Below, in pieces: positions 10,012-26,738 of a stretch of DNA of 64,000 nt. Origin of the DNA: Candidatus Bathyarchaeota archaeon. GTDB lineage: Archaea > Thermoproteota > Bathyarchaeia > Bathyarchaeales > Bathyarchaeaceae. Positions within the stretch are counted from its first letter, which is position 1; every line of letters starts with the position of its first letter. The stretch is taken from positions 15,849 through 79,848 of the forward strand of contig CAVOMX010000017.1 in the NCBI GenBank assembly GCA_963697165.1. Reading direction: 5' to 3'. Made by a program: the position numbers and the translations under genes. Below the pieces are notes generated by a model that worked only from the letters and a program-made list of their open reading frames with translations, did not search any database and was not told the origin of the DNA.

Positions 10012-10099
10012 GAAATTTATTTTTCGAATACACTCATAATAAGTTTTATCACACCTAATGGCTTTGCTGAGAATCCAAACAAAAATAATTGAGGATTGA

Positions 10100-10116
10100 A
10101 GCTATATTTTATAGCT
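10100..10116 (+). promoter_or_regulatory. Palindromic A/T-rich TATA-like element upstream of the methyltransferase gene
   Basis: AGCTATAtttTATAGCT (7-bp arms) ends 36 nt before the ATG at 10152. Position and composition fit an archaeal TATA box. Confidence 0.35.
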
Positions 10117-10151
10117 TAGAACGAGTCATATTTTGAAAGGGATATTGAGAA

Positions 10152-10877: not shown

Positions 10878-11221
10878 TTCATGAATTTGAAACCTGATTT
10901 TGGTATACGAAAGGTGATTTGAAGTTTGAATAAGATAGAAGAAATAATAAAAAGACGAAAAATGGCTTATGCGAAATTTTTATCTTAAAAATCAAAGGTG
11001 TATGAAAATTTTCCCCAGTTTGAAGAAGATGAAGTTGTCGAAAAAGGAATACTGACAATTTAGACATAAATCAATGAGGAAGCAATGCGCACGCAACTGA
11101 AAAAAATCCAAAAAAATGCAAAGATCCACATATAATGCGGCTTTTAGGGAAGTAGTGCGTAAATCTTTGGAGTAATCAAGGTGTAAACAGTCATTAATAG
11201 TGTTCCATAGAATGGATCAAT

Positions 11222-11503
11222 CTAGGATAACGCGTCCTTAAATGGAGCCCCTAGAATAAACGCCCAAATACCAAATGCTATTGTTGATAGTATGGCTTTC
11301 ATTATTTGTCCGTCGGTGTTGACTTCACTCGCTTTTAATTCTCTTTTATTGGTAGCCAGACTGAATACCAAGGTAGCTACTAATCCCATTGCAAACATAA
11401 CCCAATTGATGTTTTGGTATGGAATTTCCCCCATAACCGATTGTGATGAAATAAATATTGCATTATAAAACGTTACTACTTCAGAAGGAACAAATTTCAC
11501 CAA
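11222..11503 (-). CDS. Small membrane protein, function unknown
   Basis: 93-aa ORF (GTG start) with two to three hydrophobic helices. The frame stays open upstream without a canonical start. Confidence 0.4.
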   Translation of the reverse strand: MVKFVPSEVVTFYNAIFISSQSVMGEIPYQNINWVMFAMGLVATLVFSLATNKRELKASEVNTDGQIMKAILSTIAFGIWAFILGAPFKDALS

Positions 11504-11620
11504 TTGCGAAAGATAGTCGTCCGTTTTTTCTTCGTCCTCTCCCTCTTTCGTTGGATCGATTATTTTTTCTACATCTTTTCAGTTATAATATTTTTCATGA
11601 CCCCTTTGGGATCGAATTCC

Positions 11621-11657
11621 AAATTGTTTGGGTTTGGGCTTAAAATTTAAGGCTTTC
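11621..11657 (+). repeat. Intergenic motif M, copy 1 (TTGGGTTTGGG + palindromic CTTAAAATTTAAG core)
   Basis: aaattgtttgggtttgggcttaaaatttaaggctttc; 29 of 33 aligned positions identical to the copy at 16921-16957. Confidence 0.6.
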
Positions 11658-11854
11658 AAAAAAGAGGGTTTGGTGGATTATTTTCTGGAGATGTCTTCAG
11701 CGGTGACCAGGTCCAGACTAATCTAGAGGACTTTTGGTGACCTGGTCATCCATATCACAGATAGCGATTTCAAAGATACTTTAGATCAGTATTCTCAGTT
11801 GTGTAGTTATTTCAAAAAATATTGATATTCGGGTCAATTATTGCTCGTTATTTT

Positions 11855-12586
11855 TTATGTGTTCCCATACTTTTCAAACGATATTATTCCCATAATAACA
11901 ATCATGACGCTTACTGTGGAAATAATTACCAAATCAAAGAAAAAGTTTGTATTCATCCAATTCCCTTCAAAAATCAACTTTAATGCATCGAACAAATAAT
12001 GACTTGGTACAAACTTGGCGATCTCCTGAGTTGAACTGCTAAGTGGCATAAAAGTACCAAAAAACATCTGAGGAAGAATAAACAAGAATGAAAGTCCTAC
12101 ACCCATTTCAGGATTTTTTGATAATGTTGCAGTGATAAGCCCCAGACCAACTGAACTCAAAGCAAATATCCCAGTTACAGGTAACGCCAAAAATATTCCT
12201 TCAAAACTACTTTCTGGCCTGAATCCCAATAAATAAGCCAAAACAAGTACTACAATCACTTGCACTATTGCTATGATCATGTTAGATATAATCTGACTTC
12301 CAATAAATTCTGTTGAAGTCATTGGCGTAGTATTAAGCCTTCTCAATAATTTCTTTTCCGAAGAAAAGGATTGAGCAACAGTCATAATCAAAAAAATTAC
12401 TGCGTAAACAACCAAACCGGGAACCACAGAATTTATAGTCATTCCCAATTCTGGGTCCGAAAAAGTAAACATAAACACGACCGTTAAAAGAGCTGGAAAT
12501 AGAAGATTCATAAATAGATTGACTGGATGACGAACTAACTTCTTTAATTCCACATTGACAAGAGCAGCTAAAGCCTGCAATTTCAT
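11855..12586 (-). CDS. ABC-2 type exporter permease
   Basis: 243 aa, six hydrophobic helices. Its ATG immediately follows the TGA of the upstream ATPase gene (TGAATG), so the two genes form an operon. Confidence 0.8.
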   Translation of the reverse strand: MKLQALAALVNVELKKLVRHPVNLFMNLLFPALLTVVFMFTFSDPELGMTINSVVPGLVVYAVIFLIMTVAQSFSSEKKLLRRLNTTPMTSTEFIGSQIISNMIIAIVQVIVVLVLAYLLGFRPESSFEGIFLALPVTGIFALSSVGLGLITATLSKNPEMGVGLSFLFILPQMFFGTFMPLSSSTQEIAKFVPSHYLFDALKLIFEGNWMNTNFFFDLVIISTVSVMIVIMGIISFEKYGNT

Positions 12587-13525
12587 TCATATTCCCTCCA
12601 AGATTCTTCGCCCCGTAATATTCAAAAAGACCTGCTCCAAATTTTTTGCTTTATATCTTTCCATAAGTTCCCTAGGAGTTCCTACTTCAACCAGTTTTCC
12701 ATAATCCATGATTCCAACTCGATCACTCAATGCTTCTGCTTCTTCGATATAATGAGTGGTTAAGATAATCGTCTTGTTTTCGCCCTTTAGAGAGCCAATA
12801 AATTCCCATGTATTACGACGAGCTCTTGCATCCATTCCAACTGTGGGTTCATCAAGAAAAGCAATCTTAGGATCGTTAATTAATGCCATCATCAAATTTA
12901 GTTTTCTTAGCATTCCTCCACTATAGCCTCCAGCTTTTCTTTTACTGGCGTCAGTTAATCCTAATAATTTTAGAAATCTATCTGTACGTTCTTCTATTTC
13001 CTTCTTGGATAATGAATGAAGATTCCCAAAAAGTTCAATGTTTTCTCGTGCATTAAGGAATGAAAATACTGCGGCTTCTTGGGGACATACACCAATTATT
13101 TTTTTCACTTCATCTGGATTCTTTGTCACATCAAAACCAGCAATAAGAGCATTTCCACTTGTAGGTTTAATTATCCCGTTAAGAATATTCACTGTTGTAG
13201 TTTTGCCTGCACCATTGGGTCCTAGAAGACTGAAAAGTTCACCCTCACCAATTACAAGGTTTAAATTATCAACTGCAGTAACATTCTCAAATTTCTTAAC
13301 AAGATCCTTTATGACTATTATCGGAGCACCTTTAGATATTTTCTTGGACTTGACTGGTTTTATTTTATTTAACTGAATGTCATCAACTGTAATATTTAGA
13401 GAAAGGAGCTCCACTATGAGTTCCTTAGACCAGTTGTTGGGAATATTAATCTTCTTCAGAACCGCTATTTGCAAAAGTTCTTCTCGATTCAATCCTTTGA
13501 GTAGATTCTTAATATCTGAAGTCAA
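12587..13525 (-). CDS. ABC transporter ATP-binding protein with about 70-aa N-terminal extension
   Basis: Walker A GPNGAGKTT, signature YSGGMLRKL, Walker B IAFLDEPT, H-loop TTHY. TTG start. The N-terminal extension LNREELLQIAVLKKINIPNNWSKELIVELL looks like a SAP/HeH or Rho-N helix-hairpin. Confidence 0.9.
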   Translation of the reverse strand: MTSDIKNLLKGLNREELLQIAVLKKINIPNNWSKELIVELLSLNITVDDIQLNKIKPVKSKKISKGAPIIVIKDLVKKFENVTAVDNLNLVIGEGELFSLLGPNGAGKTTTVNILNGIIKPTSGNALIAGFDVTKNPDEVKKIIGVCPQEAAVFSFLNARENIELFGNLHSLSKKEIEERTDRFLKLLGLTDASKRKAGGYSGGMLRKLNLMMALINDPKIAFLDEPTVGMDARARRNTWEFIGSLKGENKTIILTTHYIEEAEALSDRVGIMDYGKLVEVGTPRELMERYKAKNLEQVFLNITGRRILEGI

Positions 13526-13579
13526 AAAAATCCCACATATTGGTATGTTTTAACTTCTATTTACATTTAAGACATTTAA

Positions 13580-13610
13580 CGCTTGGGTTTGCAGGTTAAA
13601 TTTTAACTTG
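13580..13610 (+). repeat. Intergenic motif M, copy 2
   Basis: gcttgggtttgcaggttaaattttaacttg, 55-85 nt upstream of the ABC ATPase start codon (minus strand). Confidence 0.5.
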
Positions 13611-13702
13611 AAACTTCTTTTGTCGTTTGATTGATATATAATCTGATGTTACTGTTTTCTAGAAAAAAAGAAAAAGGGGAAATTATGGTTTTTGAAAAAC
13701 CA

Positions 13703-14293
13703 TCATGGTGCAGGTGGTGTGTATATCGCTTCTGGACACTTTAGCCAGTATCCATACCATGAATTTACTTCGGAAATGTAATTAATCCAACCGTGTCCAA
13801 TGTTAAGTGTTTGTCCCTCAAAGTCTCCAGTGCCATGGAAAATTCCGTATGCTTTTGACAGTTGGTCCACGTTATTCAACATAACCAAGCCGTTGCCTTC
13901 AAAGCCTGCATCTGCAACTTCATCGTCATCCAAATCAAACGTAAACACATAGTTGTCTGTAAGAACCACTCTAGCTCCCACCTTTATATTCACGACCTTC
14001 CTGTAAACAACGGCATATCCTTCAAGAGTTGAATCATCGTCAAATGTAATGGTAATGAAAAAATGTTGTTCCAAAACAACATGGATTATCTGACCAGTAA
14101 CTACAGGTCCTTCGAGTAGAATTCCGTTGCCGCCCCCATCCCCACCATCTGCAGGGTCTGCCCTATCACGAGTCATGTCTACTGTAACTGCCACTTTGTT
14201 TGGTCCGTTTGTTGGTTTTGCATATGCTGGAATAGCAGAGACAATTAGCAACGCCAACAACATAATGCTGATAAGCATAATTTTCTTTTTCAT
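13703..14293 (-). CDS. Secreted protein, function unknown
   Basis: The ORF track starts at 14401. The internal ATG at 14293 is preceded by GGTGA and begins MKKKIMLISIMLLALLIVSAIPAYA (signal peptide). The mature part is beta-rich with a Gly/Asp patch. Confidence 0.6.
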   Translation of the reverse strand: MKKKIMLISIMLLALLIVSAIPAYAKPTNGPNKVAVTVDMTRDRADPADGGDGGGNGILLEGPVVTGQIIHVVLEQHFFITITFDDDSTLEGYAVVYRKVVNIKVGARVVLTDNYVFTFDLDDDEVADAGFEGNGLVMLNNVDQLSKAYGIFHGTGDFEGQTLNIGHGWINYISEVNSWYGYWLKCPEAIYTPPAP

Positions 14294-14613
14294 TTTTTCA
14301 CCGCCCCTATGTTCTGTTCCTGAGAAAGATTGACAAAATTGGAGTTTCTGTCCTCTCCCCCAGTGTGCTAATTTAGAAAATAAACTCATCTTATGTGACA
14401 TTTAAAGTTAACTAGATGATAGTTCTAGAAAACTCAATATAAATAACAACTTATGTTACAGGAGAATACGTCCTTTCCTTTTTACTTGTGTGTTTGGAGT
14501 TATGGAGAGGTGTTTTAGTTTCAGTTAACTCTCCACTTTTCCTGAATCCCAATGAACTCAACTAGTATATTCAGATTTTGTGATTGTAGTTTGGTGTTAA
14601 GTGTTGGGTTTCA

Positions 14614-14796
14614 GTGTTGTCTGTCATGGATGCGATGCTTTACTGTTTGAAGGAAGGGACATTGATTCCTCTTTACAAGCTTAGGAATAAGACTGACGGA
14701 AAATGTCCAAACTGCGGAAGGCGTTTGAGTCTCCGTCCCCTAAGCATAAACTTTCATAACAAGGAATTAACCACTTCACCATCAACTGAACCCTAA
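14614..14796 (+). CDS. Possible small zinc-ribbon-like protein (weak)
   Basis: 60-aa ORF containing CPNCGRRL, but only a single clear CxxC. It may not be expressed. Confidence 0.2.
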   Translation: MLSVMDAMLYCLKEGTLIPLYKLRNKTDGKCPNCGRRLSLRPLSINFHNKELTTSPSTEP

Positions 14797-14912
14797 CACT
14801 GCACTCTTTTTTTGCAAAGTTTCCTATGAGCTCTAATATCGTGAGTCGGTACGACTGAAGTACCAACATTCTTTGCAGTAGGTTACAAGGAAACAGCAAA
14901 TATTCGGTATTT

Positions 14913-15359
14913 TTAGCTGAAGAATTCTTTGACTGGAAGGAGTAACCCAACTATCCAGAGTATTACTAATATTATGGAACTGGGAAGGTAGAATGCAGTT
15001 AAAACATTAGCATTAGTATAGACAAGAATCAATTGTCCCAAAAGAGCAACACCGAAAATGACTAATACCGCATACCAAGCCCATTTTTTTCCCCGTCTAA
15101 AAGGTAACAATGACATAAAGATTAAACTTAAACTAAGACCCAACATATTCACCGCATCAAAATGATATACAAGCGTAATTTTATCCATCAAATTAGAGTT
15201 GAAAGCACGAACTTCTGAAATTGTTAATCCAAACAACTCTTGGAATTCTGAGTCTGATGGAGCTAGGAATAAACTCTGTAAAGCGTATACGATACCACCA
15301 ATAGCAACAATGACCAGCAAAACAGATGCAACATTCAAAACTCTACTAAATTCAATCAC
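14913..15359 (-). CDS. Integral membrane protein, function unknown
   Basis: 148 aa with four hydrophobic helices. Confidence 0.55.
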   Translation of the reverse strand: MIEFSRVLNVASVLLVIVAIGGIVYALQSLFLAPSDSEFQELFGLTISEVRAFNSNLMDKITLVYHFDAVNMLGLSLSLIFMSLLPFRRGKKWAWYAVLVIFGVALLGQLILVYTNANVLTAFYLPSSIILVILWIVGLLLPVKEFFS

Positions 15360-15480
15360 CCCCTTTTAATTGAATATGAGCAGTAGTTCATTTCTTTTGT
15401 TTCTGCCTTTAAGACTTGTGTACCAACTTTGCCTGTGTAATAATTTACAGAAAGAATCTCTCAACTGCTTGAATCTATGA

Positions 15481-15558
15481 GTATATCCTTTTTGTGTGAT
15501 GGATATACGAATTTTATTGGTATATCCTTTTAGTCGAAAGGGTATACGAATTCCCTAA
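15481..15558. repeat. Two tandem 39-nt units, each an inverted repeat GTATATCC-N12/13-GGATATAC followed by GAATT
   Basis: Unit 1 is 15481-15519: gtatatcc tttttgtgtgat ggatatac gaatt. Unit 2 is 15520-15558: gtatatcc ttttagtcgaaag ggtatac gaatt. Confidence 0.7.
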
Positions 15559-15660
15559 TTCCTTATTGTATTCTTATTATATTGATTTGATACTGTTTTT
15601 ACAGACCAAATTCTTACTGAATCATGCCTGATTCCTATCCATTTTCATTTTTCTGGTGCA

Positions 15661-15703
15661 AATGCCCTTGTCTCGTCAAATCAAATAATGTGACAAGGGC
15701 ATT
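15661..15703. other. Perfect 12-bp inverted repeat (AATGCCCTTGTC / GACAAGGGCATT) with 19-nt spacer
   Basis: Read directly: aatgcccttgtc tcgtcaaatcaaataatgt gacaagggcatt. It lies about 140 nt downstream of the surface-protein gene. Confidence 0.7.
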
Positions 15704-15844
15704 CAACCCATTTCTTGGATGATAAAACAGGCGTGATTTTTTTTGCTTAAAATTTAACCCCCACACAAAATGCATAAACAAAGAAAAGAGGTAGAATATG
15801 TGATGTGGAAAAAAGAGAGAAAGGTTTTGGTATGAATTTTTTTG

Positions 15845-16801
15845 TTATGTCTTTTTTGTTCGATAACGTTTGAATCCTACATATCCTATTAGGGTAACAA
15901 ACATGCTAAGGGTAGCCATTATTGTGCCTAGTGGAAGCTCTGGAACAACGAAAATGGGACATGGCATTGTACACTCGTTATTTGCTTCGTCGATTTCAAC
16001 TATTTCAGCTGACGAGTCTGCCCAAGCCTTTATGTTGTATACGTTCAATGCAATTCCTGTGGTGTTCCAGGTAAAGGTTACGATTCTAGATTCTCCTGGA
16101 GCCAAGGATTCTACATTTATGGTGCCAATTTCTATGCTGTCGTAGTAGCAGCTAAGGTCAAAAGACTCGGTGTAATTGCCATTATTTCGAACAGTGACAT
16201 CAATATCAACCAAGTCCCCTGGCAGCGCCTCATTATCACAAACAGTTTGGGAAACTGCTTCAACATCATGCACCCATTCTGGATCTTCGGTGAATGTGGC
16301 GGTTACAGTCTTGTTGCTATCCATAAGGAGGAACTCAGGATTAGCAGAGCCACTGAGATCACCGCTCCAACCACTGAACGTCCAACCAGCAGCTGGAGTA
16401 GCCGTTAACTGTACAATTGATCCAGCAGCATAAGGTGAACTGCCATTGACGGCAACAGATCCGCTTCCAACAATATTCACCGTCAAACAATACTCTGGAA
16501 TCTCTGTGAAGGTGGCGGTTACAGTCTTGTTGCTATCCATAAGGAGGAACTCAGGATTAGCAGAGCCACTGAGATCACCGCTCCAACCACTGAACGTCCA
16601 ACCAGCAGCTGGAGTAGCCGTTAACTGTACAACTGATCCAGCAGCATAAGGTGAACTGCCATTGACGGCAACAGATCCGCTTCCAACAATATTCACCGAC
16701 AAACTATACTCAGGACTCTGAGCAAACACAAAGTTTGATATTCCTAAAGGTACTGTTGTAACTAACAGAAAAGCAATTAAAAAGAAAGCAGATTTCTTCA
16801 A
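15845..16801 (-). CDS. Surface protein: signal peptide, two InlB-B-repeat-like domains, CARDB-like domain, C-terminal PELPL+TM anchor
   Basis: TTG start with a GGGGAG RBS. The 72-aa repeat is YSLSVNIVGSGSVAVNGSSPYAAGSVVQLTATPAAGWTFSGWSGDLSG...TVTATFTE, present twice. The CARDB-like part reads DIDVTVRNNGN...SLAPGESRIVTFTW...EANNE. The tail is VPELPLGTIMATLSMFVTLIGYVGFKRYRTKKT. Confidence 0.8.
   Translation of the reverse strand: MKKSAFFLIAFLLVTTVPLGISNFVFAQSPEYSLSVNIVGSGSVAVNGSSPYAAGSVVQLTATPAAGWTFSGWSGDLSGSANPEFLLMDSNKTVTATFTEIPEYCLTVNIVGSGSVAVNGSSPYAAGSIVQLTATPAAGWTFSGWSGDLSGSANPEFLLMDSNKTVTATFTEDPEWVHDVEAVSQTVCDNEALPGDLVDIDVTVRNNGNYTESFDLSCYYDSIEIGTINVESLAPGESRIVTFTWNTTGIALNVYNIKAWADSSAEIVEIDEANNECTMPCPIFVVPELPLGTIMATLSMFVTLIGYVGFKRYRTKKT
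16291..16722. repeat. Direct tandem duplication, 2 x 216 bp, inside the surface-protein gene
   Basis: 16291-16506 and 16507-16722 are identical over about 190 bp apart from two mismatches; they diverge only at the unit ends. Confidence 0.9.
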
Positions 16802-16920
16802 GGAGTCTCCCCTTACAAGTTATAGGTGTGTGTATAAATAAAAGCTTAATTGGTATAATTCTCTAGAAAAACTAGACTGATTTTCTATATATCAATTTAT
16901 GATTGAAAACCATAAAAGCA

Positions 16921-16957
16921 AAAATGTTTGGGTTTAGGCTTAAATTTTAAGCCCATC
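16921..16957 (+). repeat. Intergenic motif M, copy 3
   Basis: aaaatgtttgggtttaggcttaaattttaagcccatc, in the divergent region between 16801 (minus-strand start) and 17041 (plus-strand start). Confidence 0.6.
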
Positions 16958-17040
16958 CTTAAGCAACAATATGGGCTACAGCAGTTTATGTCATGGTACA
17001 ACATTAGTTTCTTAAAGGACTAAAATACAATACAATTGAT

Positions 17041-17508
17041 ATGGCAACTTTAGTTAGAGAACAGATTCTTTCCCAAATCATGAAGTGGGTGGTTAATTCG
17101 GGATTAGACGTTGAATCAATTTCTAACGAGAAACATGATTTTGCGATAACTATGTACGAGAATAGGAACCTGCCACAACTGCAAATAATTCACCCAAAAG
17201 CAGATACCGCATACGTTCTGGTTGTAGGTCTAGTTAGCATCCCTGAAAGTGACCGCAAAAAACTGAAGGAATTAAAACGTGAACAGTTTGATGAATTAAT
17301 TTGGGATAACAAAATGAGATTACTAACAATGGATGTTGATTTTACAGTATGGGGTTCTGAGCAGGATCCGGATTCTTGGGAAGTTCAAAAGCGTGTCTTC
17401 TTAGACGAAACTAACACAAACCACTTTCATGAAGCATGTCATAAAGTCAAGAACGCAATTATAAGCATTATCTGGTCATACAAACGAGAATTAGCAACAA
17501 CCGCATAG
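17041..17508 (+). CDS. Hypothetical protein (possibly YbjN/type-III-chaperone-like fold)
   Basis: 155-aa soluble ORF with no catalytic motif. The alpha/beta pattern and size suggest a YbjN-like protein, but this is an impression only. Confidence 0.5.
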   Translation: MATLVREQILSQIMKWVVNSGLDVESISNEKHDFAITMYENRNLPQLQIIHPKADTAYVLVVGLVSIPESDRKKLKELKREQFDELIWDNKMRLLTMDVDFTVWGSEQDPDSWEVQKRVFLDETNTNHFHEACHKVKNAIISIIWSYKRELATTA

Positions 17509-17529
17509 TCTACCTAAAAACCAGACATA

Positions 17530-18591
17530 TCATCCAAGTTGCTCTGTCCAATCGTTATCTTGGTTTAGCAAATCAACAATTATTGTTAGAAGAAGTTTCC
17601 ATATTTCAGAATGGTGTGCCAAGGTTGGGGATTGATGCTTAACTTGAGCCCAGTTGGAAAGAAATCGTTTGCGTTCTTCATCAAAATGCGCTTTCCGGGT
17701 TTTGTAGACTTCTTTCGCAGGTTGAGGTATCAGAACATGGTATTGAGGCAGAAGATTAATGATACCTATTTTTTTGCCTACTAATTTCCCTCTCTGTGTC
17801 CAATTGTCAACAAATTGGAATCGTTCAGGCTTCAATAAGGTAAGTCGGGCTAGTTCCAAGCTGAGTCTGAAAGCAATATTCAGATTCACCAATGCATCGC
17901 TACATTTGGCTGGAGGCTTTGTAAGCGCTAACAAGTATACTGCGGCGGGGTAACCCGATAGTTTTGGTTTTAAAAAATTGTTTTTTACCGAAAAAATCAG
18001 TCCATCTTTGATGGATGTTTTGAAGGCTTCCGATTGGATATGTGCCTTAACGCTTTCCGTGTCATCAGTAGATATTTCTGGTTTCATACTTGGCAACATC
18101 AGTTCTAGAATGTCAGCAAAGAGGTAGATACAACTGGAAAAGTCTCTGTGGAAAAACCCCCACGAATGATTAAACCAAGATTCGATACCACTTTTTTTGA
18201 TTTTGAGAAGCATGTTAACTGTTTCTAAGTAATTTTTTTGGGTATCATTCATTGTTTCTGATTGGTTTATGTGTTTCAAGAGAGCTTCGTCGCTTACGAG
18301 GGCAACTGTTTTTTCGGCTTCGTTGTTATTGCTCCATTTATCTTGTATGTAATGAAGAGCATTTCCAAGTTCACCGTAGCAATAATCATCATTTTCAAGA
18401 AACAGAGCTCTCGCGTTGTCAAGGTTATACAGGATTTTTCCATCTTTCCCAGTTGCGTGAGGAAAATCCGCATGAGAATCTGGACCCAAAGAGCCGGAAA
18501 CCAGTGACTGGGTGTCTGCTGGGGATAGGTCTAGTTCGGCTGCAATTTTTTCTGCCATAATTCTGTGATTAATCGGAAGCAAATAAACCAT
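17530..18591 (-). CDS. Hypothetical protein with N-terminal zinc-dependent phospholipase C / P1-nuclease-like His/Asp pattern
   Basis: 353 aa. The spacing NHRIMAEKIA...GSLGPDSHADFPH...LGNALHYIQDKW resembles the metal-ligand spacing of the PLC/S1-P1 superfamily. The C-terminal 230 aa are unassigned. Confidence 0.5.
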   Translation of the reverse strand: MVYLLPINHRIMAEKIAAELDLSPADTQSLVSGSLGPDSHADFPHATGKDGKILYNLDNARALFLENDDYCYGELGNALHYIQDKWSNNNEAEKTVALVSDEALLKHINQSETMNDTQKNYLETVNMLLKIKKSGIESWFNHSWGFFHRDFSSCIYLFADILELMLPSMKPEISTDDTESVKAHIQSEAFKTSIKDGLIFSVKNNFLKPKLSGYPAAVYLLALTKPPAKCSDALVNLNIAFRLSLELARLTLLKPERFQFVDNWTQRGKLVGKKIGIINLLPQYHVLIPQPAKEVYKTRKAHFDEERKRFLSNWAQVKHQSPTLAHHSEIWKLLLTIIVDLLNQDNDWTEQLG

Positions 18592-18606
18592 CCTGAATTG
18601 GCGATT

Positions 18607-19173
18607 CTATTGTTCTTCTTTTTTTTCTGGAAATTTTGGCATTCGGTTCATCCAACGGGTTAACTCGTTGAACATTTCCGTAAACAAAGGCTCCTCACTT
18701 ACAAGCAACAATGTATATTGTGCCAGTGTCTTGTCATCTAGTTCGTCAGTTAGTTTTGGCAAGTTAAAATTATATTTTTCAACTATTTTAGGACCGACAT
18801 CAAATTCTGTGTCAGAAAAGAACGGCAAAATCTCTTTTTCTTTTTTCTTAAATTGACCATAAATATCGTTTCGAATATCACAAACCATGGTCTTCATTGT
18901 TTCGTTGACTTTTGGTATTTGCTGCTCAAATTCCTTTTTTATTTCTTCTCCGGATTCTTCTCCTACTAGTGCATTTGCTATTCCTGTAGCCATTGTGCTT
19001 GTTGATTGTACCATTATTTCTCCAAAAGCATCCATCATTGCGCTCATAATTATCACGCTTGTATTTACGACAGTGTTCATGATTTTTGTTTCCCTAGTTG
19101 GCACACTTTGGGAATTACCATTTTCATTTTCACTAGAATGTTTCGCTGTGTTAGAACGCTTTTCACCTGTCAT
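18607..19173 (-). CDS. Hypothetical protein
   Basis: The ORF track starts at 19227; the ATG at 19173 (MTGEKRSN...) is more plausible. No recognisable motif. Confidence 0.5.
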   Translation of the reverse strand: MTGEKRSNTAKHSSENENGNSQSVPTRETKIMNTVVNTSVIIMSAMMDAFGEIMVQSTSTMATGIANALVGEESGEEIKKEFEQQIPKVNETMKTMVCDIRNDIYGQFKKKEKEILPFFSDTEFDVGPKIVEKYNFNLPKLTDELDDKTLAQYTLLLVSEEPLFTEMFNELTRWMNRMPKFPEKKEEQ

Positions 19174-19228
19174 AAAAATCACTTCAAAAAGATTGCTCTG
19201 ATATTCTAATAACACTTGTGCGAACAAC

Positions 19229-19268
19229 GGTTTGGGCTGGGTTGGGTTTTTGGTTAAAATTTAACCTC
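19229..19268 (+). repeat. Intergenic motif M, copy 4
   Basis: ggtttgggctgggttgggtttttggttaaaatttaacc, immediately upstream of the 18607-19173/19227 gene (minus strand). Confidence 0.5.
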
Positions 19269-19446
19269 TAACTCTGTTCTTTAGTTGATGCTATCTTTGT
19301 CACGAATTGGATTCTTGTTTCTCTGCAGATTTGTTAGTTTGTTTCTTCCTATTTTTTTGATGCACATTATATTTCTAAATTAGCTTAATGTCTATATTGT
19401 GGAATATTATCTCCAGAACGGGCATCCAAAATAATTAGTTGATGTA

Positions 19447-19998
19447 TCATGTTTGTTTCCCATAGAATAATCTCATTATTTGTGCTCTAAAAACCCAATA
19501 CCCAATGTCATAGCGTTTAACTCTACTAAAGATAGCTAAAAAGTAACCCAGAATAGAGAATATGTTTCTAAAATCGTGAATCACTCTTTCAAAAACGTGA
19601 ATGGGTTCATAACCAAGTTTGTATATTTCTTTTCCACGATTGTAATAATATCTATAAGAATTATGTTGACCGCTTTTCCTTATTAATTTTGGTGGACAAA
19701 CCCATCCTTTCACAGAACAGTCTTGGTGTAGGAATTTTAACCAAACGTAGCTATCTTCAGAACCGACTTCAGCGAATTTACCGTTAAACACCTTTAGAAA
19801 TGGAGAAACCTTAAGAAGCATCGCATATCCTGATCCACCTAAATAGTCCGTGTTTGCTTTTTGGTTTTTTTCTATAAACCGAGGCGGAAGTATTGTGTCC
19901 GCATCAACTCTTAAGATGTAATCATATTCATGCAAATTGACTTGATTTAATGCGATATTGAGGGCTGTTGCTATTCTTTTTCCTAAGTAATCATTCAT
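19447..19998 (-). pseudogene. Family-2 glycosyltransferase lacking its N-terminal ~50-60 residues (probable remnant)
   Basis: GKRIATALNIAL...YILRVDADTILPP is the GT2 region around the DxD motif. The upstream frame is open for only about 15 more codons before a TAA. Just about 55 nt then remain before the neighbouring gene end at 20101. Confidence 0.45.
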
Positions 19999-20100
19999 GT
20001 TTGGTCTAACGTAAATAATTTCAATTGTGTTTGAACTTTGAGGGAATTATTGGTTACAAATCTAGCTACTGCTTTTTTTATAAAAAATTTGTGTGTATAA

Positions 20101-21471
20101 TCATAATGTAGTAATTTCATAACCAGCGTTCTTCCAAGCAATCATACCCCCAAGCATATTATTGATGTCTTGAAAACCTGCTCGAAGTAGAATACTCGCT
20201 GCCAAGCTAGCACGATTTCCCACATTGCACACAACTATGATAGAACGATCTTTTGGTAATTCTGAAACCCGATTTTGTAGATATCCTGAAAAGATATTAA
20301 CTGATCCAGGAATGTGACCCTGCTCCCATTTTTCATCTTCTCTAACGTCGAGTATGAACAAGTCATCTTTTTCGTTTAACCACTTCTTTAATTCTTGCAC
20401 AGAAATTAAACCAAAATGATCCACAGGTAGGGACTGTTTATACCAGCCTTCTATCCCTCCCACAAGATACCCTGTTATGTTATCATAGCCTAGTCTGTAA
20501 AGATATCGAGTAGCTTTGTTTATGTAATTTTTGTCCTCCAAAATTAACAGGATTGATTTATCGTAAGGCAAAGTCCAACCTGCATATGAGGGAATTCTTT
20601 CCAACCAGATATTATACGAGTCTTTCAAGTGAGCACCCCCAAATGATGGAGGTTGACGAGTGTCAACTACAATAGCGCCTAATTTCATCTGGTTTAAGAA
20701 TGCTATTGGCATAAGAGGTGAAGGATTTGGTAATTTCGTCAATACTGGTGGTCCTTCCAGATTGTATTTTTCCATTTTCAAAAAGTAAGGGGGCTGATTA
20801 TGCCGTTCAGTAATTTTATGTTCTATGAATTCTTCTCTTGTTTTCTGTAAAAGTGGATTAAAGACCCTTTCTATACCTAACGTGCTTTCCTCTCGTTGAC
20901 TAATATCGCCTCCACAAACTGATCCGGCACCATGGGCAGGAAAAATAAGCATTTCATCTCCTAAAGGTAAAAGTTTGTTGAAAATGCTATTATGAAGTGC
21001 TTCAGCTAATCTTGGTGCTTCACTTGGTCCATATAGGTCTGTACGTCCAACGTCTCCAACAAATAATGTATCTCCAGTAAAAACCATTATTGGTCTTTCG
21101 CTTAGGTCTAGATCAGCTAAAGCATAAGACATGCTTTCATCTGTGTGACCAGGTGTCTCTAATGCAATTAGTTTGATTTTTCCAAAGAAAAATTCTTGTC
21201 CATCCTGTAACGATTGGCCATATTTGAAGTCTAGTTTGGATCCATGAAAGATCTCCGCCCCTGTGTGTTGCGCCAGTTCAATTGAACCAATTACGTAATC
21301 TTCATTGCGGTGTGTTTCAAAAATTCCTTTGATTGTCATCTCTTCTTGCTGAGCCATATCAATAAAAATTTGGCAGTCTCGTCGGGGATCAATAACCATT
21401 GCTTCATTTCCCGAGCCTATGAAATATGAATTGTGAGATAATCCTTCAGACTTAACTTTTTTAATCAACAT
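20101..21471 (-). CDS. MBL-fold metallohydrolase fused to two rhodanese domains (persulfide dioxygenase/CstB-like architecture)
   Basis: 456 aa. MBL motifs ETHRNEDYV (variant of HxHxDH), TPGHTDES, FTGDTLFVGDVGRTD and PAHGAGS. The C-terminal rhodanese has the active-site loop VVCNVGNRAS. Confidence 0.85.
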   Translation of the reverse strand: MLIKKVKSEGLSHNSYFIGSGNEAMVIDPRRDCQIFIDMAQQEEMTIKGIFETHRNEDYVIGSIELAQHTGAEIFHGSKLDFKYGQSLQDGQEFFFGKIKLIALETPGHTDESMSYALADLDLSERPIMVFTGDTLFVGDVGRTDLYGPSEAPRLAEALHNSIFNKLLPLGDEMLIFPAHGAGSVCGGDISQREESTLGIERVFNPLLQKTREEFIEHKITERHNQPPYFLKMEKYNLEGPPVLTKLPNPSPLMPIAFLNQMKLGAIVVDTRQPPSFGGAHLKDSYNIWLERIPSYAGWTLPYDKSILLILEDKNYINKATRYLYRLGYDNITGYLVGGIEGWYKQSLPVDHFGLISVQELKKWLNEKDDLFILDVREDEKWEQGHIPGSVNIFSGYLQNRVSELPKDRSIIVVCNVGNRASLAASILLRAGFQDINNMLGGMIAWKNAGYEITTL

Positions 21472-21642
21472 AAATAATACCTGTTAATAAATTTACTAAA
21501 TTAGTATATTAATTATTACATTGACTGGGGAAATCGAAAACAATCATGATAATTACCAACTGGAATTTGCTATTATCCCTTGTTATTAGTAGTTTTTTTA
21601 TATGAAAAAGCTTATTTGAAGAGTCAATTTATAAATTATTCC

Positions 21643-22104
21643 ATGTTTCCATTAGGTTTTTTTCCATACATTATAGGTGGAATAATAATAGGAATCGGTG
21701 TAAGTCTTATTTACATTGCAACAGGACTTCACGCAACACAAAGCAGTTTCTTTGATACTACAATATCCTTTTTTTCGAAAAGACCATACTTTCTTCAAAA
21801 ACAGTATCTCGATTCTAGAGGATGGCGCATCACTTTTGCTCTAGGAGTCATTGTAGGAGCATTCATTTACACAATAACATTAGCTGCGGAAGGTTTCTTC
21901 ACAACATCAGTAGAATGGTGGAGACTTGCAATTGGGGGTTTTCTTGTAGGATTTGGAACAAGACTTTCAAAAGGTTGCACGTCTGGACATGGTATAAGCG
22001 GTTTAGCGTCACTATCTACAACTTCACTTGTTGCTGTAATCACATTCATAACAGTTGGAATATTAACTGCCCTTGTTATCCAAAGTCTGGGGGTATTGCC
22101 TTGA
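21643..22104 (+). CDS. YeeE/YedE family sulfur-compound transport protein (half-size)
   Basis: Four helices and the LSKGCTSGHGISGL motif. The ATG at 21643 is preferred over the TTG at 21580. Confidence 0.8.
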   Translation: MFPLGFFPYIIGGIIIGIGVSLIYIATGLHATQSSFFDTTISFFSKRPYFLQKQYLDSRGWRITFALGVIVGAFIYTITLAAEGFFTTSVEWWRLAIGGFLVGFGTRLSKGCTSGHGISGLASLSTTSLVAVITFITVGILTALVIQSLGVLP

Positions 22105-22505
22105 AATCAAAACATGTTTTTGTGTTTATAGGCGGAATATTCTTTGGTTTTGGCTTAGCAATAGGTGGAATGTCAAAACAAGAAATCGTTCTAAGCTTTC
22201 TGCAATTAAAAGATCTGGGACTATTGTTACTACTTGGCGGATCAGCTCTAGTAACAGCACTAGCAATAAATCTTGTACCCAAAATTTTAAAAAAACCAAT
22301 ATTAGGTGGCGAATTTAAGAAAAGAACCCGAACATTAACCAAAAGAACAATTATCGGCGCAATAATTTTTGGCGTAGGTTGGGGACTCTCAGGTTTATGT
22401 CCTGGATCAGCAATGGCAAGTCTCGGAATAGGAAATCTTCCAGCCTTAATCGGTATTGCCGGTATGTTTCTTGGAGCCTACATAATGGGAAGATACTTTA
22501 CATGA
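22101..22505 (+). CDS. YeeE/YedE family sulfur-compound transport protein (second half-size paralog)
   Basis: The TTG start overlaps the upstream TGA (ccTTGA). LKSKHVFVFIGGIFFGFGLAIGGMSKQEIVLSFL...GWGLSGLCPGSA. The 5' part of track ORF 21822-22505 is an out-of-frame overlap. Confidence 0.75.
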   Translation: MKSKHVFVFIGGIFFGFGLAIGGMSKQEIVLSFLQLKDLGLLLLLGGSALVTALAINLVPKILKKPILGGEFKKRTRTLTKRTIIGAIIFGVGWGLSGLCPGSAMASLGIGNLPALIGIAGMFLGAYIMGRYFT

Positions 22506-22550
22506 GGTTTGAATAAAATAGTCAATATCTGAATTATTGGCTTTATCAAG

Positions 22551-22904
22551 ATGAAAAAGGTTGTAGATATTCAAGCTCGGGACTTTGATTATGAAATTAA
22601 GTCCAATAATCCGGTAGTAGTCGAATTCTGGATAAAATCGTGTGGTAACTGTAAAAAATTCAAACCCGTTTATTATGAGCTTTCTGAAATTTTTGCTGAC
22701 AGATTAAAATTCACCAGAATTAACATGTTTGAAAGTATTGAGAATCTTAGATTGGCAGAGGGGCTTGGAGTAGAAGAAACACCAACAACTAAACTATTTC
22801 ACAAAAGTGAAGAAATTGGAGAGATTATTGGATTTACTACACTAGAAACTGCAACTGAAGAGATTAAAGCAATTATGAAAAAATCAAGTTGTTGCAAAGA
22901 ATAG
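22551..22904 (+). CDS. Thioredoxin-fold protein (CxxC = CGNC)
   Basis: VVEFWIKSCGNCKKFKPVYYEL, with the thioredoxin layout following. Confidence 0.8.
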   Translation: MKKVVDIQARDFDYEIKSNNPVVVEFWIKSCGNCKKFKPVYYELSEIFADRLKFTRINMFESIENLRLAEGLGVEETPTTKLFHKSEEIGEIIGFTTLETATEEIKAIMKKSSCCKE

Positions 22905-22994
22905 TAAATACCTCCGTGATAAAAAAGTAAAAAAAGCTTGCAGCACAATTAGCTTTTAATCTTTTGAATTCAATAGTTAATTTGGGATAATTTT

Positions 22995-24443
22995 ATGTCC
23001 AAGAGTATGAATTTAACAATTTTACAAATAAATGACACCCATAGCTACTTTGAATTGCACAATGAACTATACTGGGTTGGACATAGAGCAAGCCATAAAA
23101 AATCCGGAGGATACGCAAGAATTTCCACTCTTTTTAAAGAAATAAGAAACGAAAAAAATGGAAAAGTGATTACGTTAGATAACGGAGATACAATTCATGG
23201 TACATTTCCTGCAGTGAATAGTAAAGGTGAAGCATTAATTCCCATATTGAATGAATTAGCTATAGATGCAATGACGGCGCATTGGGAATTTGCATACGGT
23301 CCAGATAACTTTAGAAACATAGTCAATAAGCTCAATTTTCCAATGATAGCAATTAATTGTTATGAAAAAGAAACGAACAAACTTGTTTTTTCCCCTTTTC
23401 ACATAATAGATATTGAGGATCTGAGGATAGGAATTATTGGGATTTCGGCTACAATTGTGGATAAAACAATGCCTAAACACTTCAGTAAAGGTATTTACTT
23501 TACTTTGGGAAACGAAGAATTACCTATATACATTAAGAAACTCCGGGAAAGTGAAAAAGTAGATCTGATTATTGTTTTGTCTCATTTGGGATACCCACAA
23601 GAACTCAAGCTAGCTAAAGAAGTTGGTGGAATAGACGTTTTGTTAAGTGGACATACTCATAACCGTCTTTATGAAGCAGTAGTTGTAAATGGTAGCATAA
23701 TAATGCAATCGGGTTGTCATGGTTCTTTTGTTGGCAGATTGGATCTTGAAGTGAGGAACGGTAAGATTCATAAATTTCAGCATAAATTAATCAATGTTGA
23801 TGAAACAATAAAACCTGACCCAAATGTTGATTGTTTTGTCAACAAAGCTTTAGATAAACATCGAGATATGTTAAATCTTGTTGTAGGAAAAACCAAAACT
23901 ATCCTTAATCGATACCACGTAATGGAATCTACAATGGATAATTTTTTACTCCAAACTCTGATTAAAGTTAGTGGAAAAAAAATTGCATTTTCTAATGGAT
24001 GGCGTTACGGAGCGCCTGTTCTGACTGGATACATAGTAATGAATGATCTTTGGAACATCATTCCCACTAATCCAAAAGTTTCAATTTGTAATATTAGTGG
24101 AGCAGAGCTTTGGGATATGATGGAAGAGAATCTGGAACATACATTTTCTTGTGACCCATACAAACAAATGGGGGGTTATGTGAAAAGATGTTTAGGTCTA
24201 AACATTTATTTCAAAGTAGAAAATCCTGAGGGAAAGAGAATTCAAGAGTTTTTTGTAAATGGAAAAAGGGTGAATAAGTCAAAAATGTATAGCACATGTT
24301 TTGTGACAACCCAAGGTGTTCCAGAGAGATATGGCAAAGATCGGGAAAGCCTGGAGATTAATGCAATAGATGCTCTTGAAGAATATTTAGAAAAAAATAA
24401 GTTAGTTTCTGCAGAATTAAGAAGAACAATAGTACCAATTTAG
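22995..24443 (+). CDS. Bifunctional metallophosphatase/5'-nucleotidase family protein (UshA/SoxB-like), cytoplasmic
   Basis: ILQINDTHSY, DNGDTIHGT and SGHTHNRL, plus a C-terminal 5'-nucleotidase substrate domain. No signal peptide or Tat motif. Confidence 0.85.
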   Translation: MSKSMNLTILQINDTHSYFELHNELYWVGHRASHKKSGGYARISTLFKEIRNEKNGKVITLDNGDTIHGTFPAVNSKGEALIPILNELAIDAMTAHWEFAYGPDNFRNIVNKLNFPMIAINCYEKETNKLVFSPFHIIDIEDLRIGIIGISATIVDKTMPKHFSKGIYFTLGNEELPIYIKKLRESEKVDLIIVLSHLGYPQELKLAKEVGGIDVLLSGHTHNRLYEAVVVNGSIIMQSGCHGSFVGRLDLEVRNGKIHKFQHKLINVDETIKPDPNVDCFVNKALDKHRDMLNLVVGKTKTILNRYHVMESTMDNFLLQTLIKVSGKKIAFSNGWRYGAPVLTGYIVMNDLWNIIPTNPKVSICNISGAELWDMMEENLEHTFSCDPYKQMGGYVKRCLGLNIYFKVENPEGKRIQEFFVNGKRVNKSKMYSTCFVTTQGVPERYGKDRESLEINAIDALEEYLEKNKLVSAELRRTIVPI

Positions 24444-24557
24444 AAACACTAAACTATAGTTGAAGCTGATTGAATATCACTTTCCAATTTGCTACTTAGC
24501 TTAAGATTCCATTTGAATTACAAGCCAAAACTCAAATAATCAAAGGAGGAGCTGAAA

Positions 24558-24962
24558 ATGAACGAAATTAATGAACAAGAAGTTCTAGCAAAAATCCGTA
24601 CCTTATTAGCTTTAGAAAGAAATTATCTTGCAGAAGAAAGGACTGCAATGGCTGAATTTAGAAACGGTTTGGCACTTATAGTTATTGGTCCTACAGTGAT
24701 TACAATAATAGCATATACATTGTCAGTTTTTACTGTAGAAAAATCAATTTTTTTGGATGTATTAAATTTTGCATTTTTTGGTATATTATCGATTGTTGGA
24801 ATATGGATAAGTTTTCGTTCACAATCCAAATTAAGGATAATTAGGAAAAAGAAGGCAAATATTAAAAATCGAACAATTGAAATTAGTAAATCCTCTAAAG
24901 AAATCTACAATCTTCTATGTGATTGTTTAGACGATAATGATGAGGACGGCAATCTTCTCTAA
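24558..24962 (+). CDS. DUF202 (YidH-like) membrane protein
   Basis: LALERNYLAEERTAMAEFRNGLALI followed by two to three helices, as in DUF202. Confidence 0.65.
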   Translation: MNEINEQEVLAKIRTLLALERNYLAEERTAMAEFRNGLALIVIGPTVITIIAYTLSVFTVEKSIFLDVLNFAFFGILSIVGIWISFRSQSKLRIIRKKKANIKNRTIEISKSSKEIYNLLCDCLDDNDEDGNLL

Positions 24963-25065
24963 TTTTTTCACAGGACAAGATTGTGAATAGCCAAAGCATT
25001 AAGCTTGCATTTGGAAACTCGATTTAACTAATAATTAGGTATTAATGCAATATCAATCACTAAAG

Positions 25066-26349
25066 TTACCAAGAACCAAATAATATCCATGCAAAGATTA
25101 ATGTAAGAATTAGATTTAGTGATTGGCCTACAATATATAATTGGACTGGTTTACCCCCGGAAATCTGGGTTTTAAGGGTTTTAAAGTCTGTTTCTAATCC
25201 TATACTCAAAAAGGCAATTGCAAAAAGAAACGTTCGAATGCTTCCTGTTAATTTAAGGATGTTAGTTGACATCACTTCGCCCATTATGGGTAGGACTACA
25301 AATGAAGAGAGTATTGAAAGAAAGGCGAATCCAATTATAAATTTTGGAAATCTATACCAGATCTGAATTAGACCTGGTTTATCGTTTGAGGTTTTATCAA
25401 TCTTTGTGACCCATAGAAATGCAATAACAAATGCTATTAGTGCAATCATAACGTTTTGAATGAGTTTGATTACTGTGGCTACTTCCATTGCTTCTTCTCC
25501 CAGCAATTCTCCTGCAGCTACAACCGCACCGGTTGAATCAACGGTCCCCCCGATCCAAGCTCCACCAACTATAAAGTCCATTCCCGTAAGTCTAATAAGA
25601 GTAGGTAGACCAACCAGCAGTATTACTGTGGATATTAAGGAAATTGAAATTGTTAATGTCAGAAATTCCTTTCTAGCTTTAGTTGCTGCTGCAACCGCTA
25701 TAGCCGCAGATACTCCACAAACAGAGGTTGCAGCTGACATTAAGACTGTTAGTGTTTTATCCATTTTAAGAACAGATGTGCCATATTTGTACATAAGAAA
25801 TAAGACGATGGGTGTTACTCCCCAGGCAAGCAATAGACCTTGTATTCCCAAATTTAATATTTGGGAAAATAAAATTTCAGCGCCTAATAACACTAATCCT
25901 ATTTTTATGTACAATTCTGTTTTTATTGCAGGTATTAAAAAATCGGGTACACCGATTGTGTTGCTGATTATTAATCCAATAATTAATGCCCAAAGAACGT
26001 ATTCCAAACCATAAGTTCCAATGAATGATTGTTTAGATATTACTTGGGCAACTAATCCTAAAACCGAAAATATGAGAAAGGCAGGAATAAAAGTCGACAA
26101 TTTACCTTGAATCGATTTGATAGCTATTGAAAGAATGATAAGTAGAATAAATGTCAAAAAAAGATAGGAAATAAACCCATCTGTAGAAAATGAGTTAAAA
26201 GGATTTGTAACCCATAGATTTGGCTTAGGCACGGTAGTAATTATTCCTAATAAAGTGACCCCAAAAAGAATTAATCCCAACCAAACTGTCCACCAATCTT
26301 CTGACTTTCTTAAAGCTAAAAAAAGGGTTTTTAAAGATATGCTAATCAC
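25066..26349 (-). CDS. YeiH/UPF0324 family membrane protein (putative sulfate-exporter family)
   Basis: 427-aa polytopic protein. The central SAATSVCGVSAAIAVAAATKARKEF segment resembles the conserved YeiH family motif. Confidence 0.55.
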   Translation of the reverse strand: MISISLKTLFLALRKSEDWWTVWLGLILFGVTLLGIITTVPKPNLWVTNPFNSFSTDGFISYLFLTFILLIILSIAIKSIQGKLSTFIPAFLIFSVLGLVAQVISKQSFIGTYGLEYVLWALIIGLIISNTIGVPDFLIPAIKTELYIKIGLVLLGAEILFSQILNLGIQGLLLAWGVTPIVLFLMYKYGTSVLKMDKTLTVLMSAATSVCGVSAAIAVAAATKARKEFLTLTISISLISTVILLVGLPTLIRLTGMDFIVGGAWIGGTVDSTGAVVAAGELLGEEAMEVATVIKLIQNVMIALIAFVIAFLWVTKIDKTSNDKPGLIQIWYRFPKFIIGFAFLSILSSFVVLPIMGEVMSTNILKLTGSIRTFLFAIAFLSIGLETDFKTLKTQISGGKPVQLYIVGQSLNLILTLIFAWILFGSW

Positions 26350-26738
26350 CTTTATTTAATATTTTATCTAATTTCAATTTAACACTTTTCCGTAATTATT
26401 AACATCGAGTCAAAAGTAGCAATCTTTCACAGTGATGAGAAAAAGGCTGTTTTTATTCGGCTTCAAACTACTGGGATTCATAACGATATGGGTCCGTCGC
26501 TTGCAAGAAGGATTTCTGAGGAAATAAAATAGAAACTGGGTTTTCAAATAGCATAAAAGTGATGATTATTCCTATTTTTACATATAGTTTATAGAAAAAA
26601 TGGTCTGATCATCTAATCCAGCTGCCACAAATGCGCGCACATGTGTGGTTTCTATATTACTGAGTAAGATAAATTGGTTGGGGAATTAAAAGTTAATTAA
26701 GAAAATCAACTTAAAAGACGATTGAAGAGGGAAACAGC

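Follow-up and report, generated by a model that had tools for sequence, protein, structure and literature searches.

The 64,000-nucleotide stretch of DNA analyzed here (the window; G+C content ~37%) belongs to contig CAVOMX010000017.1 of a Candidatus Bathyarchaeota archaeon (assembly GCA_963697165.1; 2.0 Mb, 81% complete) and carries, between positions 20092 and 26389, a block of seven genes. In order, these encode a metallo-β-lactamase (MBL) protein fused to rhodanese domains (MBL-Rhd), two half-size YeeE/YedE membrane proteins of the PmpA and PmpB types, a thioredoxin, a SoxB-like hydrolase, a DUF202 protein that some relatives of the block lack, and a YeiH membrane protein. The locus is a sulfur-trafficking cluster in two layers, a core module and an accessory layer; the block is movable, and joins a known sulfur import/transfer module to an uncharacterized, non-exported cousin of SoxB. 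A preliminary description of this DNA had recognized the same genes and likened the set to cst and YeeE loci, from which it was said to differ in having a thioredoxin and a hydrolase in place of TusA or YeeD. All of the genes and motifs described are present, and the comparison holds on both counts, as the cluster is related to cst, BigR, pmpABC, and YeeE loci and contains neither TusA nor YeeD, although two TusA genes and one DsrE-like gene are found elsewhere in the genome. Loci fetched from relatives are labeled L### below, and sampled genomes G###.

The hydrolase gene (22995..24443, plus strand) encodes a SoxB-like binuclear metallohydrolase of 482 amino acids with Metallophos and 5_nucleotid_C domains. 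With the DxH motif already at residues 14-16, a signal peptide could not fit ahead of it, and the N-terminus has no hydrophobic or twin-arginine stretch. The best sequence match in the PDB is Thermus SoxB; among NCBIfam models, the UshA model gives 119 bits and the nucleotidase models 119-143 bits, where the cut-offs are at least 600. In an unrooted tree of 76 full-length relatives, with clade representatives classified with NCBIfam, there are three well-supported clades: canonical SoxB, which scores 617-803 bits with the SoxB model TIGR04486; the nucleotidases; and a third clade, including the window protein, which scores 215-345 bits with TIGR04486 and has weak nucleotidase scores. Since the tree is unrooted, it does not tell which two of the three clades are sisters. 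The residues of the binuclear metal site (D14, H16, D65, N121, H197, H220, and H222) are conserved across all three.

The conserved positions that discriminate among these clades mostly place the third clade with SoxB: ten are common to it and SoxB against the nucleotidases, and three are common to it and the nucleotidases against SoxB. Motif III is GNHEF in nucleotidases (Asn in 19/19, catalytic His in 19/19), mostly GHWEF in canonical SoxB, and AHWEF throughout the third clade (18/18), so that the position of the nucleotidase catalytic His is occupied by Trp97 in the window protein, as in SoxB. Since GNH(D/E) is a general motif of the calcineurin-like superfamily, the Trp is most readily explained as a derived state common to SoxB and the third clade. 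Nucleotidases commonly have Gly at position 337 (12/19) and Arg at position 339 (14/19), whereas SoxB and the third clade have R337 and G339 within a WRYG motif; column 398 is Gln in nucleotidases and Arg (R398) in the other two clades; and a DPYxQxGG insert present in the third clade is missing from most nucleotidases. The window protein has neither the catalytic Asp-His dyad nor the C-domain Arg/Gln pattern of nucleotidases, and it carries the SoxB-type substrate-site motifs (HWEF, R-x-G, and DPYxQxGG..R) with a single change, at Tyr395. An AlphaFold model built on an 82-sequence alignment (pLDDT 96.8) has SoxB structure 2WDC as its top fold match (TM 0.93, rmsd 2.3 Å), with closed-form nucleotidases at 0.84-0.87. 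Judged by its sequence, the hydrolase is best classed as SoxB-like, as the preliminary description had proposed: it belongs neither to the nucleotidases nor to canonical SoxB but to a third clade.

Canonical SoxB (Thermus thermophilus 2WDC; 4UWQ with SoxYZ) and the window protein have the same two-domain metallophosphoesterase/5'-nucleotidase-C fold, the same metal ligands, and in common HWEF, (W/F)R(Y/W)G, and the DPYxQxGG..R insert with its Arg. The window protein differs in belonging to a separate clade, in being ~70 residues shorter after DxH, and in reading GGY for GGD. Canonical SoxB is exported by the twin-arginine translocation (Tat) system and acts on SoxYZ, whereas the window protein has no Tat signal, and SoxY, SoxZ, SoxA, and SoxX were found neither in the genome nor beside the gene.

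The third clade is large and widely distributed. A scan of 1.84 billion representative proteins returned 497 relatives of the hydrolase with E-values no higher than 1e-30. Close relatives (55-85% identity, all ~482 amino acids) occur in Methanoculleus, Methanobacteriaceae, Methanosarcina, Methanoperedens, and Thermoplasmata, and in Asgard-labeled metagenome-assembled genomes (MAGs; Promethearchaeota, Hermodarchaeota), Anaerolineae, Nitrospirota, Clostridia, Bacteroidota, and others. In the tree, sequences from archaea are interspersed with bacterial ones, an indication of lateral transfer. Many of these proteins are named 'sulfur-oxidizing protein SoxB' by JGI, and the NCBI family name is 'bifunctional metallophosphatase/5'-nucleotidase'.

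In a survey of genes within 6 kb at 80 family loci, 27 loci had a sulfur gene (DsrE, rhodanese, MBL-Rhd, split YeeE, TauE, or SoxA/TsdA). DsrE-like genes were the commonest neighbors (15/80), followed by genes for MBL-Rhd (6/80), split YeeE (5/80), SoxA/TsdA-type cytochromes (4/80), tandem rhodaneses (2/80), and TauE (2/80); DUF202 genes, which are counted outside the 27, lie beside SoxB-like genes at 7/80 loci. A Pfam scan of 150 dereplicated neighbor genes found no dominant family, and the sulfur signal appears only in the per-locus counts. The links between thioredoxin, YeeE, and SoxB-like genes, and between SoxB-like and MBL-Rhd genes, recur in other gene orders (L090, L088, L054, L004, L018, L040): in L090 thioredoxin-PmpA-PmpB genes are divergent from the SoxB-like gene, in L088 the SoxB-like gene converges with the MBL-Rhd gene, and in the bacterial loci L054 and L046 the PmpAB genes lie immediately upstream of the SoxB-like gene. 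Recurrence in differing orders points to a functional link rather than inherited adjacency.

A separate arrangement of the signal-less SoxB-like gene, 82-95% identical across phyla and domains, is found at eight loci (L042, L057, L060, L064, L070, L071, L073, L043), whose hosts are Desulfobacterium N47, several Nitrospirota, a Bacteroidota MAG, and Ca. Methanoperedens. The SoxB-like gene there comes after a co-directional series of genes for a SoxA/TsdA-like cytochrome c, two large cbb3-type cytochrome c domain proteins, and sometimes DUF202, with genes for DsrE-like, SBP_bac_11, and P-type ATPase proteins nearby. These loci look like a laterally spread module of TsdA and SoxB-like proteins in which the hydrolase is, oddly, non-exported.

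The minus-strand gene at 20101..21471 encodes a CstB-like protein of 456 amino acids in which Pfam and NCBIfam recognize a Lactamase_B domain and two rhodanese stretches. It aligns over its full length with the CstB-type structures 3TP9 (E 2e-71) and 3R2U (E 5e-51), and has their architecture of MBL, pseudo-rhodanese, and rhodanese: the middle rhodanese is Cys-less, as in CstB, and the catalytic Cys is confined to the C-terminal rhodanese, where Cys415, in the loop CNVGNRAS, is invariant. This three-domain layout is common to CstB of Staphylococcus aureus and its relatives (3R2U, 3TP9) and to Blh of the BigR operon, and the Cys after the PAHGAGS motif, together with the His, His, and Asp positions discussed next, is conserved in both; however, the CstR, BigR, sulfide:quinone oxidoreductase (SQR), and CstA partners are absent here.

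The MBL domain of this protein departs from its relatives at one metal-motif position. The preliminary description had set its motif, THRNEDY, against HxHxDH; the motif is as described, but the appropriate comparison is with the HxHxDF of CstB-type proteins (HIHADF), from which only the second His is changed, to Asn56. As a result, the protein does not have the HxHxD(F/H) motif of all solved persulfide dioxygenases. The Asn occurs in 120/120 close homologues and in 29/29 Bathyarchaeia loci, so that the HRNEDY form is invariant in a large subfamily, mostly of archaea and anaerobes; THRNEDY is also present in all six MBL-Rhd copies linked to a SoxB-like gene, including those of Anaerolineae, WOR-3, and Micrarchaeota. 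All solved relatives (CstB-type proteins, Myxococcus persulfide dioxygenase, and Arabidopsis ETHE1) have His at this position. The first motif His (H54), the PGH/PGHT His (H109), and the GD Asp (D134) are invariant in homologues, as are the PAHG His and the Cys186 that follows it; we take H54, H109, and D134 to be the counterparts of the three Fe ligands (2-His-1-carboxylate) of ETHE1-type persulfide dioxygenases. The invariant His/His/Asp set makes a metal site plausible, in keeping with the preliminary description, and the invariant change from His to Asn suggests altered chemistry. Sequence comparison is compatible with both readings of the MBL domain, as an O2-dependent dioxygenase and as an enzyme of another kind.

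Divergent from this gene are the two halves of a split YeeE/YedE transporter, both on the plus strand. The PmpA-type protein (21643..22104) matches PF04143 at profile positions 177-307, the C-terminal half of YeeE, and has its Cys in the motif GCTSGHG, which is kept in most orthologues (GCTSGAA in L063). Its start is most probably ATG 21643, not TTG 21580, because the L002 orthologue is the same 153-amino-acid open reading frame from ATG and a conserved A/T-rich block lies ~30 nt upstream. The PmpB-type protein (DUF6691; 22101..22505) matches PF20398 and PF04143, corresponds to the N-terminal half of YeeE, and has its Cys in GLCPGS. Translational coupling of the two genes had been proposed because the TTG start of the second overlaps the TGA stop of the first; this four-base NTGA overlap is kept in 5/5 orthologous loci, with the start varying among TTG, ATG, and GTG, and its conservation supports both the assigned start and the coupling.

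A split YeeE of the PmpA/PmpB type and the location of an MBL gene beside it, as in the pmpABC/BigR arrangement, have been described (PMC11582611). The pair in the window fits this type, with adjacent halves matching the C- and N-terminal halves of YeeE. Like PmpA/PmpB of Serratia (YedE1/YedE2-type), it consists of two proteins of ~130-150 amino acids with four predicted helices each and a single conserved Cys each, equivalent to Cys293 (first gene) and Cys91 (second gene) of full-length YeeE, and it is encoded beside an MBL-fold protein. It differs from the Serratia pair in being archaeal, in the four-base overlap of its genes, and in that a dedicated CxxC thioredoxin gene often precedes or follows, instead of a TusA/YeeD-type partner.

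The thioredoxin-fold protein (22551..22904, plus strand; PF00085) has the active site CGNC, and an alignment of five orthologues gives the subfamily signature EFWI(K/R)SCxxC. A Cys within the last ~10 residues is found in 3/5 orthologues, with the tails SSCCKE (window, 22887-22904), RYCQGQKMR (L002, 4547-4915), and TACALS (L090, 2626-2982), and in neither of the other two. The SSCCKE tail was considered as a Cys swinging arm like that of SoxY and rejected as a general feature, as the tail is not conserved; it could be a lineage-specific sulfur-carrying tail or due to chance. A complex prediction for the SoxB-like protein with the thioredoxin scored 0.00, which counts neither for nor against their interaction. 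The remaining two genes encode membrane proteins. DUF202 (24558..24962, plus strand) is a small protein with a borderline match to PF02656 (23.2 bits against a cut-off of 23.4), and the YeiH/UPF0324 protein (25066..26349, minus strand), of the putative sulfate exporter (PSE) family, matches Cons_hypoth698 (PF03601) with 170 bits and TIGR00698 with 99 bits, under the 232.6 cut-off of the latter.

A sample of 251 Bathyarchaeia genomes separates the two layers of the locus. The MBL-Rhd protein is present in 53/251; among 29 of these MBL-Rhd loci, viewed with flanks of just 1.5 kb, both YeeE halves lie immediately next to the MBL-Rhd gene in 16, mostly downstream and co-directional, and a thioredoxin homologue lies beside the MBL-Rhd gene or the YeeE halves in six, in four of them between the two. 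MBL-Rhd with PmpAB, and sometimes a thioredoxin, is a common, conserved module in Bathyarchaeia. The SoxB-like gene is a rare add-on (8/251 genomes of the class; 1/24 of the other genomes of the genus), and with DUF202 and the YeiH/PSE exporter it makes up the accessory layer. All 8/8 SoxB-like-positive Bathyarchaeia genomes have MBL-Rhd, compared with 45/243 of the others, a difference that overstates the link because related genomes are not independent. The preliminary description had asked after co-occurrence of its five genes; synteny does exist in L001, L002, G019, and L090, and partially in bacteria, but the five do not form one uniform unit, as the frequencies of the core module (53/251) and the SoxB-like gene (8/251) make plain. 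Two genomes of the same genus, G001 and G005 (loci L104 and L107), carry a more distant, co-directional MBL-Rhd/PmpA/PmpB copy with 51-53% identity, and the island copy of MBL-Rhd/PmpAB in the window is 82-87% identical to those of G019 and L001; the genus may have two lineages of this module.

The limits of the block (20092..26389) are those of its tblastx similarity to L001 and to G019/L086, in both of which the flanks are unrelated to the window flanks, so that the block moves as a unit. L001 keeps the whole block, with 84% identity in the hydrolase, and G019 keeps it without DUF202, with 77%; YeiH is included in both. L002, also from Bathyarchaeia, has a co-directional MBL-Rhd gene and lacks YeiH; its block is flanked by genes for a peroxiredoxin (AhpC/TSA) and a pyridine-nucleotide disulfide oxidoreductase (1611-2009 and 8412-9839), which hints at a thiol or oxidative-stress context. 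The contig of L001, the nearest relative of the block (protein identity 84-95%), is labeled 'Promethearchaeati archaeon', an Asgard-level name; against a window from Bathyarchaeia, this indicates either transfer between lineages or a labeling or binning problem. In G003, of the same genus, sequence collinear with 3.8-10.0 kb of the window runs directly into that at 26.7 kb, so that ~16.6 kb of the window, containing the block, is strain-specific (~10050..26700, limits approximate). This region also includes an accessory-looking block at 11.6-19.3 kb and a truncated GT2 gene (19447-19998). A mobile-element search around the block found only short, chance-level flanking direct repeats and no tRNA genes.

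The divergent intergenic region (21472..21642) has A/T-rich blocks ~25-30 nt upstream of both start codons, which are conserved in the alignment with L001 and G019; they are candidate archaeal promoters that would give leaderless transcripts. Three estuary metatranscriptome contigs match the MBL-Rhd and YeiH genes with at least 99% identity, a weak hint that the block is expressed; they do not cover the SoxB-like gene, a gap that proves nothing.

The block can be interpreted as an accessory, laterally moving island for the uptake of thiosulfate-like or sulfane sulfur and its cytoplasmic processing without oxygen or respiratory cofactors, a proposal for which we judge the chances to be about even. 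The analysis shows directly which genes and motifs the block contains, the SoxB-like signature and fold of the hydrolase, its missing export signal, the recurring partnerships, and the accessory distribution; each pathway step is an inference from the protein families. The two-piece YeeE channel would import thiosulfate, polysulfide, or polythionate sulfur, and the C-terminal rhodanese of the CstB-like protein would accept the sulfane sulfur, forming a persulfide on Cys415 and leaving a sulfite or sulfonate moiety. The CxxC thioredoxin would reduce the persulfide to sulfide, making it available for assimilation. The sulfonate sulfur would become an S-sulfonate or thiosulfonate on a thiol, through attack of sulfite on a disulfide or exchange with a polythionate, and the SoxB-like hydrolase, a predicted cytoplasmic S-sulfonate/thiosulfonate sulfohydrolase, would clip it to release sulfate, as SoxB does on SoxY; the YeiH/PSE protein would export the sulfate, perhaps assisted by DUF202. 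The net reaction would resemble thiosulfate + water → sulfide + sulfate. Siroheme sulfite reductase, ATP sulfurylase, SoxY, and SoxZ were not found in the 81%-complete genome, and no other fate of sulfite-level sulfur was found in it.

A precedent for the hydrolytic step is the TsdA/SoxB-like/SdoA pathway of Erythrobacter flavus 21-3, where genetic evidence demonstrated that a SoxYZ-free SoxB-like hydrolase is needed for sulfate release from tetrathionate, and where the gene for this enzyme clusters with an MBL-persulfide dioxygenase-rhodanese gene (Zhang et al., 2020, ISME J, PMC7608252). The two systems, compared by description, resemble each other in having a SoxYZ-independent SoxB-like 'metallophosphatase/5'-nucleotidase' near an MBL-rhodanese fusion, and in the proposed freeing of sulfate from a sulfonate-ended sulfur chain (tetrathionate in E. 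flavus). The E. flavus system belongs to an aerobic bacterium and begins with periplasmic TsdA, whereas the block in the window lies in an anaerobic archaeon, contains no cytochrome, encodes a clearly non-exported hydrolase, and supplies thioredoxin, split YeeE, DUF202, and YeiH as partners.

Several observations weigh against the proposed oxygen-free uptake and processing route. The SoxB model TIGR04486 covers the hydrolase only from profile positions 111 to 547, with 344.8 bits, and its equivalog cut-off of 550 is not reached; the protein is missing the ~70 residues that SoxB has after DxH, has Tyr395 (third clade, 18/18) where SoxB has the Asp of GGD (13/14), and contains Cys241 and Cys399, which are invariant in and particular to the third clade, Cys399 adjoining Arg398. 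Given the Tyr and the two Cys, the chemistry of the hydrolase may differ from that of SoxB, and its substrate is a prediction. Two thirds of the family loci have no sulfur neighbor, and the neighbors are very heterogeneous. The MBL domain belongs to a family of oxygen-dependent dioxygenases, a poor fit to an anaerobic pathway; the thioredoxin is a generic protein, as is the YeiH exporter, and sulfate export by the YeiH family is itself a prediction. The block also contains no regulator that would reveal the inducing compound.

The main rival to this anaerobic route is detoxification of reactive sulfur of the cst/BigR type during oxygen exposure, which we consider possible though doubtful. The MBL domain would then be a true persulfide dioxygenase (persulfide + O2 → sulfite), with the rhodanese producing thiosulfate, the SoxB-like protein and thioredoxin restoring thiols that had become S-sulfonated or persulfidated, and YeiH exporting the oxidized product. 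The full-length similarity to CstB-type structures, the pmpABC/BigR-like placing of the MBL gene beside the split YeeE (PMC11582611), and the peroxiredoxin and disulfide oxidoreductase genes around the L002 block all suit this explanation. So does the invariance of the three presumed Fe-binding positions (first motif His, PGH His, GD Asp), which correspond to the Fe ligands of ETHE1. Yet Bathyarchaeia are sediment anaerobes, the second His of every solved persulfide dioxygenase relative is replaced by an invariant Asn, which suggests altered chemistry, and the block has neither a CstR/BigR-type regulator nor SQR.

It is improbable, in view of the active-site pattern, that the SoxB-like gene encodes an ordinary intracellular nucleotidase or phosphoesterase whose position beside a sulfur module is functionally meaningless. 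The NCBI family name, the unrelated neighbors at most family loci, and a fairly good sequence and fold match to the cytoplasmic E. coli nucleotidase 3IVD would be explained in this way, but the catalytic His is replaced by Trp, the positions of the nucleotidase Arg (column 339) and Gln (column 398) follow the SoxB pattern, and the links to sulfur genes recur in independent arrangements in both bacteria and archaea. Less probable still is that the island handles selenium, as in uptake and detoxification of selenite or selenosulfate: the weak matches to models for a YedE putative selenium transporter, a rhodanese-related (seleno)protein, and a UshA-like (seleno)protein fall far under the cut-offs, every stronger match is to a sulfur family, and the block showed neither a selenocysteine codon nor a SelD context.

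Extension of the oxygen-free route from this island to the whole clade is more speculative, and we regard it as rather unlikely. Under this proposal, the signal-less SoxB clade would be a cytoplasmic thiol-S-sulfonate/thiosulfonate sulfohydrolase that acts with a rhodanese and a dedicated thioredoxin, providing strict anaerobes (Bathyarchaeia, methanogens, Anaerolineae, Clostridia, and others) with a hydrolytic route, free of molybdenum, heme, and oxygen, from sulfonate sulfur (thiosulfate, polythionates, sulfite adducts) to sulfate; the HRNEDY MBL protein would be an oxygen-independent partner, and not a dioxygenase. If so, the route would amount to thiosulfate splitting, or to the oxidation of sulfite with a disulfide as the oxidant.

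The split transporter (PmpAB), the MBL-rhodanese fusion (CstB/Blh), and a SoxYZ-free SoxB-like step are each of a known kind. The literature searched yielded no paper on cytoplasmic or archaeal enzymes resembling SoxB, and it describes neither the non-exported SoxB-like clade of anaerobes, nor the invariant HRNEDY subfamily, nor an archaeal accessory island that pairs the SoxB-like protein with a PSE exporter, DUF202, and a thioredoxin of its own. The HRNEDY variant of the CstB type occurs in about a fifth of the sampled Bathyarchaeia genomes, a dioxygenase-family protein in anaerobes and an unstudied subfamily. The SoxB-like clade is itself large, extending over methanogens, Asgard-labeled and TACK archaea, Chloroflexota, Nitrospirota, Bacillota, and others, and because part of it is automatically labeled SoxB by JGI, surveys that count soxB genes may wrongly credit anaerobes with Sox-type thiosulfate oxidation. 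If members of this clade do release sulfate from S-sulfonates in the cytoplasm, they would represent an unrecognized oxygen-free means of disposing of sulfite-level sulfur or of splitting thiosulfate, which would bear on cryptic sulfur cycling in sediments and on the sulfite tolerance of methanogens.

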